A stretch of DNA of 63,552 bases, filler included, from Globobulimina sp. (Eukaryota): the NCBI GenBank assembly GCA_003354225.1. It is 50 parts of 50 records of this genome, joined end to end, with 100 filler letters (N's around TTAATTAATTAA, not from the genome) between each part and the next. Parts side by side here need not be neighbours in the genome. Positions count along the whole stretch, not along the records: positions 35,662 to 36,834 come from PIVH01021703.1; 49 more parts are not named here. The stretch is one strand, 5' to 3'. Made by a program: the position numbers and the translations under genes. This document shows positions 6,552 through 36,995 of this stretch, one piece after another (position 1 is the stretch's first letter; each line of letters opens with the position of its first letter). The notes beneath the pieces are model-generated. The model worked only from the letters and a program-made list of their open reading frames with translations, had not been told where the DNA came from and did no database searches.

Positions 6552-7133
6552 TTAACGTATTTTCTTCTCCATCTCTTTTTTTATAATAGTTGGAATGTTT
6601 ACATTCCAAACGTTTGCTCCTAAGACATAATAGAATATTGGCAATGTCATATTCACAGTTTCTTCATATTTACATTTTTTCCTCGATTTCCCGTTTACAT
6701 CAACAATTTTTAATTTTGCTGCAAACTTTACTCCATAAAGAATGGGTATGTATGCATCCAATATAATTGCTTTTGTTGTTGAATTTGTTTTTATATTTAA
6801 ATCAAATCTGGTTGGAAATCCAGCGATTTCTTCATAAACCTCCAATGTTAGTTTCTTTTTACTTTGTTTAGTGACTGTGGCTGAACTAATCTTTGGATGC
6901 ATGCCGGCCCAAAATAATCCAGTATCTGTCTGTTGAGTGATATAATTATAAACCTGTGTTGATGATTTATTTATTGTTATATCTTTTTTCTTTGTGATTG
7001 ATATTGGCAATAAACTGACAACTAAGACCGCACCAATTGACCCAGCTACAATCGCTACCTTTGTCCAAAGTTGTGCCTTTGTTGGCTGCTGTTTTTCCAC
7101 TGCAAACAACGACAAAAATTGTTTCAAAGCCAT
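6552..7133 (-). CDS. Membrane-anchored protein, possible SRPBCC/START-like domain
   Basis: Complete 193-aa ORF; N-terminal TM helix, then ITINKSSTQVYNYIT...WAGMHPKI. Confidence 0.5.
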   Translation of the reverse strand: MALKQFLSLFAVEKQQPTKAQLWTKVAIVAGSIGAVLVVSLLPISITKKKDITINKSSTQVYNYITQQTDTGLFWAGMHPKISSATVTKQSKKKLTLEVYEEIAGFPTRFDLNIKTNSTTKAIILDAYIPILYGVKFAAKLKIVDVNGKSRKKCKYEETVNMTLPIFYYVLGANVWNVNIPTIIKKEMEKKIR

Positions 7134-35201: not shown

Positions 35202-36064
35202 TATTAATTATAAAAAATGATTATGCATGATATGTATACCTTTTTTGTTTTTTGTTTTTGGTTTTTATATAATCATGCATGGCAGTATTAGCCGTATACG
35301 TATATTTATAATTTTAGTCTTAATATAATTGTATTGTGTTATATGAGTATAATTGTATTGTGTTTTAGCATCATACACATTTCGCGTATACGAACAGTTT
35401 GGAGTTTTGGACCCAACAAGTACAGAAAGTTTCATTTAAACTGTTTTTAAAAACATTTTTTATCCAAATTAATCATCGTGTAAACTCAAATTTTAACTTC
35501 AATTTAAATTCAAATAACTCGTGTTTGGACAGTCATACATTGAGAAAATATGGGTCAAACANNNNNNNNNNNNNNNNNNNNNNNNNNNNNNNNNNNNNNN
35601 NNNNNTTAATTAATTAANNNNNNNNNNNNNNNNNNNNNNNNNNNNNNNNNNNNNNNNNNNNATCCGCTTTAACCACATGATCAATTATCTTCAAATTCCA
35701 ACAAATTTCATATAATTTCTTCGTAAATTTGCAGTCAATCGAACACTTGCAGATTTACAAGGTTATTGCGGCGAGGCGAAGAAGGTTTTTCTGTTAGTTG
35801 CTTTTATCAGACTTTGAAAAACTTCTTCCCCTCTCCCCTCTGCTAACCATAAAGCCTTACCAGAGGAAATACATATTATTCAAACCCACCCACCCACACC
35901 TTACAATACTTAGAGCTCACAGCAACATTTCACCAACCAATTAATCTCCTTTCTTCTTTTTCTTTTTCTGATTGGTGGTGAATTATTGCAAACTGTTCTT
36001 AGTTACACACAAACCGTTTTTTTAGGAGACACTCAATACAAACTTCTATGGTGAACACAGTGAT

Positions 36065-36286
36065 TTAGCGTTACATTAAGCGGTCGGACCTAGTCCATAG
36101 AAAATTGAACTGTTCTGCTAGTCGATAGGATCGTGTAGTTCGTCTACGACGGTTGGTCGAAGACTTTGATATTTTTATCCTAAGTTTAGGGAAATTAATA
36201 ATCGGTAATTATAAACTTTTGATAATTATATCTTAGTCTTTGGTTTGGATCCTACCGACATTACCCGCAAACGTGAAGAACGTTAA
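36065..36286 (+). ncRNA. Candidate structured non-coding RNA, family not recognised
   Basis: Nested helices 36065-72/36279-86, 36080-83/36265-68, 36121-32/36248-59, 36155-65/36235-45 with G-U pairs; T-rich tract after. Confidence 0.5.
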
Positions 36287-36669
36287 CAAACTCTATTTTA
36301 TTTATTTTCTGATTTATCTATGTATTAATTAAATTTATTTATTCATAAAAACCTTGAAACCTTGAAGTAGCTATATTGCTCGGATATCATATTGGTCGAA
36401 GTTGAAATGATGATGGCCAAGGAAACAACTCTTGAAATAATATATGATGTTTGCATGGAATTGCAACATAAAATAGAAAAATTTGAATATGTGGAAAGAG
36501 AATTTGTTCATTGTGATTATATACATCGTGGATTTACAATAAAAACGTGAATATATTTTATTTACTGGTGATAGGATATCATTTTTAGGCTTAGATAAAA
36601 TAATCCCAAACAATTAGGCTTATATAATAAATAATGTTCAAACATGATATGTGATCTGAAATATGTTAC

Positions 36670-36756
36670 CGCGCAGAAGGTGGAATCGAACCACTGTGTT
36701 GTTATACACCTACAGATTTGAAGTCTGCACACCACACCAGTGAGGATCATCCGCGC
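36670..36756 (-). tRNA. tRNA-Sec (anticodon UCA), eukaryotic 9/4 type
   Basis: GCGCGGATGATCCTCACTGGTGTGGTGTGCAGACTTCAAATCTGTAGGTGTATAACAACACAGTGGTTCGATTCCACCTTCTGCGCG: 9-bp acceptor, 6-bp D and anticodon stems, long variable arm, 4-bp T stem, G discriminator. Confidence 0.96.
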
Positions 36757-36995
36757 ATAAAGTACTGCTTAGGTGGGATTTAATCCCACATTTATATGCA
36801 TTATTTAACTCAACCTTAATTTTATTATTATCATNNNNNNNNNNNNNNNNNNNNNNNNNNNNNNNNNNNNNNNNNNNNTTAATTAATTAANNNNNNNNNN
36901 NNNNNNNNNNNNNNNNNNNNNNNNNNNNNNNNNNAACCACAAACTATCGCAGATCACAGACATCCGACAGCCAATACAAACACTTTAATACAACC

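Follow-up and report, generated by a model that had tools for sequence, protein, structure and literature searches.

Retrotransposons that combine split direct repeats with a tyrosine recombinase (YR) gene are an already known class, and so are solo remnants of such elements. For the Ngaro elements (DIRS order) of Cafeteria burkhardae, the available text describes an A1-ORFs-B1-A2-B2 plan, a coding order of gag-like, RT/RNase H and YR, no methyltransferase domain seen, and solo AB repeats (PMC8547959). PAT-like elements also carry split direct repeats, YR and RT/RNase H, and in the accessible part of PMC4157794 PAT falls in a methyltransferase-bearing group, with loss of the methyltransferase reported within PAT lineages. 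Elements of the split-direct-repeat YR plan that are without this domain are Ngaro-type according to the accessible parts of PMC4157794 and PMC9210276. SIRE, which is A2-B2 of VIPER in Trypanosoma cruzi, consists of A (185 bp), a unique internal piece of ~30 bp and B (220 bp), as given in the available portion of PMC6681497. DIRS-1 has inverted repeats, linear single-stranded cDNA and an internal unique sequence complementary to the terminal repeat, and its internal complementary region (ICR), needed after first-strand synthesis, templates the element ends (PMC7192593, in the sections available). How elements of the DIRS order prime reverse transcription is stated there to be unknown; DIRS-1 is without a known primer, and a 3' hairpin has been suggested as a candidate.

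The sequence described here lies in a window (the whole stretch of Globobulimina sp. DNA that was analyzed, 63,552 nucleotides) composed of ~50 unrelated contigs of 1172-1174 bases each. As these contigs are joined by N44-TTAATTAATTAA-N44 linkers, DNA outside 35662-36834 is no genomic neighbour of the folded stretch under study, which shares one 1173-base contig (L001, window 35662-36834; contigs and loci are labelled L throughout) with a tRNA-Sec gene. The folded stretch is almost certainly the spacer and B2 of a Ngaro-like YR retrotransposon, present here as a solo A-X-B piece (35729-36375). As read from the contigs, the plan of the element is A1-[gag-like frames, RT/RNase H, YR]-U-B1-A2-X-B2, where U and X stand for the sequences in front of B1 and B2, respectively (Table 1).

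The element resembles the Ngaro of Cafeteria in plan, gene order and solo remnants, the window copy being the counterpart of the solo AB repeats, and it differs from the account available in PMC8547959 by a ~270-bp unique A2-B2 spacer with a covarying fold, by a U that pairs with B1, and by a YR frame behind a splice-acceptor-like site. Beyond its own group of relatives, the closest proteins share just 24-25% identity with its RT, and the label Ngaro-like is one of structure. In VIPER the YR gene comes before RT, unlike in the Globobulimina element. VIPER is also confined to kinetoplastids in the available part of PMC9210276, unlike the present element, and while anatomy and sizes are similar to those of SIRE, the internal piece is ~270 bp here (PMC6681497, available portion, for SIRE). 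Compared with PAT (PMC4157794, accessible part), the Globobulimina frame is without a methyltransferase match. A DIRS-like element in the strict sense (inverted terminal repeats and ICR) was rejected because the repeats are direct; the U of the Globobulimina element is complementary to the inside of B, whereas the DIRS-1 comparison in PMC7192593 (sections available) concerns element ends. A folded domain is not mentioned for SIRE/VIPER in the available portion of PMC6681497, and in a literature search, with the original Ngaro papers outside its coverage, neither a folded tail nor masking of B1 was found described for split-direct-repeat elements.

Table 1. Features of the window copy and YR frames of related loci. 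Positions are window coordinates unless a contig label (L) is given.
Feature	Position	Strand	Remarks
Left flank, piece of another multi-copy repeat	35662-35728	-	outside the element
A repeat of the split direct repeats, ~155 bp	35729-35884	+	directly after B1 in L004, L008, L015, L059
Spacer X (A2 to B2)	35885-36153	+	A1 copies diverge at its start
Spacer hairpin D1	36023-36120	+	stem 36023-37 / 36104-20 and 36044-51 / 36095-102
Domain D2	36121-36259	+	12-bp helix 36121-32 / 36248-59, hairpin 36135-47, A+U-rich B hairpin ~36159-36241
B repeat at B2 position, ~220 bp	36154-36375	+	same sequence directly behind the YR frame
B core motif	36261-36275	+	predicted mostly open at B2, buried at B1
Element right end	36367-36375	+	with left-end TTG forms the B/A junction inside full elements
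Right flank, 3' part of a gene family of the host	36376-36535	+	uninterrupted relatives L019, L020, L021
tRNA-Sec	36671-36756	-	RF01852, 73.3 bits
YR frames behind AG	L009:904; L015 764; L045:5123; L048; L051; L052; L059:499	L009 +; L015 -; L045 +	

A DNA search of the genome returned 16 matches on 15 contigs at 71-100% identity (a lower bound), and the matches break at fixed points. The preliminary description had named a high-copy DNA transposon as an outcome against it: a mobile element it is, but the copy number is moderate and the element is a retrotransposon. A precedes coding sequence in L045, L028, L032, and L034, and since these 5' copies comprise only ~120-155 bp of A before running into coding sequence, the segment between A and B is a spacer found at the 3' end only. 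B follows directly 3' of the YR frame in five loci (L004, L009, L015, L045, and the metagenome locus L059), and gap-free B/A junctions occur in four (L004, L008, L015, and L059). The T-rich tract mentioned earlier for the stretch is present and is located inside B. The order in L015 is YR, U, B1, A2, X, and B2, the latter cut by the contig end, with all 87 compared bases identical between B1 and B2. L045 starts in host DNA and continues with A1, two long frames, RT/RNase H, YR, U, and B1. The full A1-ORFs-B1-A2-B2 plan was assembled from separate contigs, none of which spans both element ends.

The frames of L045 matched, in order, PF00078 RT (E 1.7e-5), PF17917 RNase H-like (E 0.008), and PF00589 Phage_integrase (E 1.8e-5), all below curated cut-offs; PF00589 was matched by three of three last-gene frames, likewise below the curated cut-off (E 1.8e-5 to 3e-4). 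The two long 5' frames of L045 had no convincing Pfam match. Neighbouring proteins of the RT frame in a protein atlas carry RVT_1, and the nearest proteins elsewhere are five at 43-54% identity, followed by proteins at 24-25%. The RT/RNase H frame ends ~45 residues past RNase H, and within the four long L045 frames (one element) Pfam gave no methyltransferase match behind RNase H at E <=0.1. The term Ngaro-like is therefore one of structure (direct split repeats, without methyltransferase), not of an RT tree. At its conserved N-terminus the YR frame has no start codon, and it stands directly behind an AG in 7 of the 7 copies in which the N-terminus was found (8 loci examined); this AG is likely a splice acceptor. 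A metagenome scan with the YR alignment yielded a single locus (L059) from 337 candidate stretches, which belongs to the same family and adds little new variation. Two contig sets were also considered: X1 covers the flanks only, and X2 covers the element with variants like those of other copies and was left out of the counts because it may come from the same source sample.

Two further features of the repeats were observed. A C-rich motif, a G-rich purine tract on the opposite strand, opens X right behind A2 (window 35885-35900) in 6 of 7 copies tested, and a similar C-rich motif stands just before B2 in a distant family (L085 ~6655-6672, minus orientation). The A repeat contains a long hairpin (window 35780-35826; counterparts in L032 and L046) with arms that are complementary by eye in three diverged families.

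The window copy is an A-X-B piece with clean ends and without coding frames. Its left flank is matched by six other contigs, of which five diverge from it at the element start, and reads like what we take to be a non-LTR reverse transcriptase frame, while the gene family of the right flank is presumably cation-efflux-like. Because the flanks come from two different targets, the solo copy would stem either from ectopic recombination between two insertions or from an assembly join, and it is probably a passive remnant, or such a join.

All helices listed in the preliminary description were found in place when pairings were counted on the sequence. In the window copy, the closing helix TTAGCGTT (36065-72) with AACGTTAA (36279-86) is paired at 8 of 8 positions, the GCGG/CCGC helix at 4 of 4, the helix 36121-32 / 36248-59 at 11 of 12, and the helix 36155-65 / 36235-45 at 11 of 11 with four G-U pairs. 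Each of the two small local hairpins has 4 of 4 pairs, and the pseudoknot candidate 6 of 6. Stability over shuffles, which had been proposed as a check, was also found: the interval first described (plus strand) folds at -60.9 kcal/mol with a z of -2.80, and 2 of 200 shuffles equal it. The minus strand of the same interval reaches a z of -3.56 with 0 of 200 shuffles as good, so that energy by itself gives no choice of strand. For a longer conserved unit (36009-36290) the z is -1.97 in the window copy, with 9 of 200 shuffles as good, and the whole unit has a z of -3.9 in L002 and -3.3 in L011 (40 shuffles each). In most regions, minus-strand and DNA folds equal or beat the plus-strand RNA when z values against shuffles are compared.

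Part of this first structure is lost in diverged copies: neither the closing nor the GCGG helix is kept there, nor is the pseudoknot. The 5' strand of the closing helix occurs in only 3 of 8 spacer copies, where it lies within a variable hairpin, and the helix was rejected as a conserved one; the pseudoknot, rejected as well, retains 3 of 5, 2 of 6, and 3 of 6 pairs in L011, L015, and L016, respectively. The claim of a structured unit stands, and covariation was found, but the extent first given was wrong, as the real unit starts ~50 nt upstream of 36065. An alternative closing helix (36015-21 / 36276-82) has 7 of 7 pairs in L001, L002, and L011, with a predicted probability of only 0.03-0.16.

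Spacer copies were collected by an exact pattern search, which gave 8 matches against 0 in the control and represents about three families. The decayed or rearranged copies L014 and L010 were excluded from the alignments, and the partly decayed L016 and L012 were retained in A6. The D1 stem closes a nearly invariant internal loop of 10 x 9 nt (36052-61, 36086-94) together with a small hairpin whose length varies. Over the 8 copies, 92.6% of D1 cells are paired and both-sided change affects 13 of its 24 pairs, a level reached by 0 of 500 shuffles and compared with 2-4 both-sided pairs in slid controls. D1 alone does not fold better than shuffles (z 0.03 in the window copy; -1.3 and not clear in L011). 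In D2, the 12-bp helix joins the spacer to B. Comparison of L001/L002 with L011 shows both-sided changes at 3 of these 12 pairs, and in L015 the spacer strand forms a matching duplex with the B sequence of that locus (-17.7 kcal/mol). The A+U-rich hairpin within B is the third part of the fold that is retained. Across the whole X-B2 fold, 17 of 76 pairs show both-sided change in three sequences. This covariation comes from few events, as the independent families number only three or four; relatedness is not taken into account by the shuffle control, and the structures were picked on the same alignments that were scored. The X-B2 fold has very probably been kept by selection in mobile families.

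G-U pairs occur in 13 helix columns and A-C in 6. This excess, together with the splice-acceptor-like AG before YR, favours a plus-strand RNA, in agreement with the strand first proposed from the G-U bias, although minus-strand energies fit equally well.

A model of D1 matched only the window and the decayed L014 among 31 sources, 20 of them contigs picked out of 70 RT hits; in these 20 contigs, which hold distant RT families of the Globobulimina sp. genome, D1 was not found. The tails of the distant families gave no uniform picture. Behind the last frame, look-alike long-hairpin arms were seen in L094:5774-6004, L097:5213-5443, and L099:4297-4527 (z -5.9, -2.9, and -1.1, respectively), and two of these tails carry the 7-mer ACCTAGT, which is also in the invariant loop of D1 and may be there by chance. 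The RT-bearing contigs L089, L094, and L097 (5.6-7.1 kb) have the same 119 bases at start and end and may be collapsed repeats or circles.

The same B repeat is predicted to fold differently in its two contexts. U is unrelated to X, pairs with the same B bases, and then extends over the B core (36261-75). In the U-B1 fold, 96.6% of cells are paired over 35 pairs in 6 copies, and plus-strand z values range from -3.7 to -6.2 (4 copies, 40 shuffles each). Three of these pairs change on both sides and 25 of 35 are invariant, which makes them mostly uninformative on covariation either way; further pair types in U-B1 did not exceed shuffles. For the first five bases of the core (TTACC), the predicted pairing probability is 0.94-1.0 in 5 of 5 U-B1 copies versus 0.09-0.15 in 3 of 3 X-B2 copies, the open core at B2 being the prediction of a pseudoknot-free model. 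At B2, core bases could form 5 bp with the spacer (the D1 loop) in 3 of 3 copies; this pairing, if formed, would still be a state other than that of B1. The B core pattern had 12 exact matches on 11 contigs, every one of them an element copy; with 1-2 mismatches the pattern was at chance level (149 matches versus 180 in the control).

In such elements the genomic RNA starts within A1 and stops within B2, and A2 and B1 serve to restore the ends that it lacks. The RNA of the present element would have to read through B1, with its 3' end and the priming of reverse transcription both placed in B2. As B1 and B2 are identical in sequence, some feature outside B would have to keep B1 from being used as the RNA end or the priming site. 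Behind the YR stop, U would zip B1 into one long hairpin and bury the B core. Before B2, X would pair with only 12 bases beside the core, which would stay open and be set next to the D1 hairpin, with its invariant internal loop as a plausible binding site for the element RT or Gag. U would thus mask B1 and X would display B2, and in its folded form the X-B2 RNA may be the signal for 3'-end formation or priming. A context switch of this kind, with B1 silenced and B2 presented for 3'-end formation or priming, is the best overall explanation, with a little over an even chance. For the mechanism itself (U masks B1, X displays B2), whose function we infer from modelled folds, the chances are about evenly balanced. 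A stronger form, stated for split-direct-repeat retrotransposons as a class, in which an antisense-like U inactivates B1 and X-B2 is a novel RNA domain that makes the 3' end, possibly by self-cleavage, and allows tRNA-free priming, is tentative and would hold in perhaps a minority of outcomes.

Among the other explanations of the fold, it is unlikely but conceivable that X-B2 serves this retrotransposon RNA in cis, for packaging, stability, or export by Gag binding rather than for a choice between B1 and B2, with a separate job for the U-B1 hairpin. An invariant internal loop in a covarying stem is a typical protein-binding site, and X is present once per full-length RNA; a packaging role, however, leaves unexplained why the unrelated U and X pair with the same 12 bases of B to opposite effect on the core. 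A structure that acts instead in minus-strand single-stranded cDNA, where it would help to form circles or to load the recombinase in the manner of the DIRS-1 ICR, is improbable. The linear single-stranded cDNA of DIRS-1 and its need for the ICR after first-strand synthesis (PMC7192593, sections available) provide a precedent, minus-strand and DNA folds lie equally far below shuffles, and A-C columns do occur, but they are outnumbered by G-U columns, and the B/A recombination junction lies ~90 nt beyond the folded part of B.

It is very unlikely that X-B2 belongs to an undescribed class of self-cleaving ribozymes, cutting the element 3' end and active only at B2. Invariant, unpaired-looking segments within a multi-helix covarying scaffold would suit such a molecule, and context-dependent folding would turn it off at B1; against it, no Rfam ribozyme matched at E <=10 in the window region or at E <=1 in five other loci, and no covarying pseudoknot was found. 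The known small self-cleaving ribozymes were rejected in the same way, as no Rfam model matched and the core motifs of the small ribozyme classes, compared by eye, could not be placed. That the pairings have no function and are just what ancient inverted duplications left behind in an A+T-rich repeat is hard to credit: U is close to the reverse complement of part of B and the z of the window copy is modest, but both-sided change in more than half of the D1 pairs with invariant loops, and helices kept in families only 70-79% alike, speak against it.

Rfam scans of the window and of other element loci gave no match on the folded stretch. As the preliminary description had anticipated, no family reached its gathering score in the window except tRNA-Sec, and nothing lay over the folded stretch at E <=10. 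The tRNA-Sec is real, although ARAGORN reported no tRNA and missed it, but it is a chance neighbour of the folded stretch. A tRNA-Sec gene is commonly single-copy; in the Globobulimina sp. genome, over a dozen matches were found for the tRNA-Sec and its flank. No tRNA was found on the other 14 contigs with element matches (DNA scanned; the contigs are short, one scanned in part). The proposal of a Pol III-type gene clustered with the tRNA-Sec did not survive: the stretch is not single-copy but belongs to a retrotransposon terminal repeat unit, matched 16 times on 15 contigs, and the tRNA-Sec is itself multi-copy.

A free-standing ncRNA gene beside the tRNA-Sec, be it a Pol III-type gene or one for a divergent RNase P RNA, can practically be dismissed, for the stretch is a terminal repeat unit 3' of YR genes, without a tRNA beside it on the other 14 contigs, and RNase MRP RNA is located on other contigs. 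In its favour, RF00009 had no match in the genome (15 of 1639 candidates scored; assembly incomplete), and an 8-bp helix with a single bulged U, which we take to be like the P4 pseudoknot of RNase P, is possible in the window copy. This helix has 8 of 8 pairs in L001 and L002 but only 4 of 8 in L011, and it is in competition with the D1 stem, which covaries. Nuclear RNase P RNA was rejected on the missing RF00009 match and this loss of pairs, and RNase MRP RNA because RF00030 matched two other contigs and nowhere on the folded stretch. The two RNase MRP RNA genes lie at L017:130-403 and L018:1501-1793, both on the minus strand (74 and 71.8 bits, respectively).

The outcome removes one candidate "new ncRNA gene" from annotation. 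Split-direct-repeat elements must use B2 yet ignore an identical B1, and with U-B1 and X-B2 as two defined RNAs of <300 nt, both questions, that of priming and that of the choice between the B repeats, are testable in vitro.
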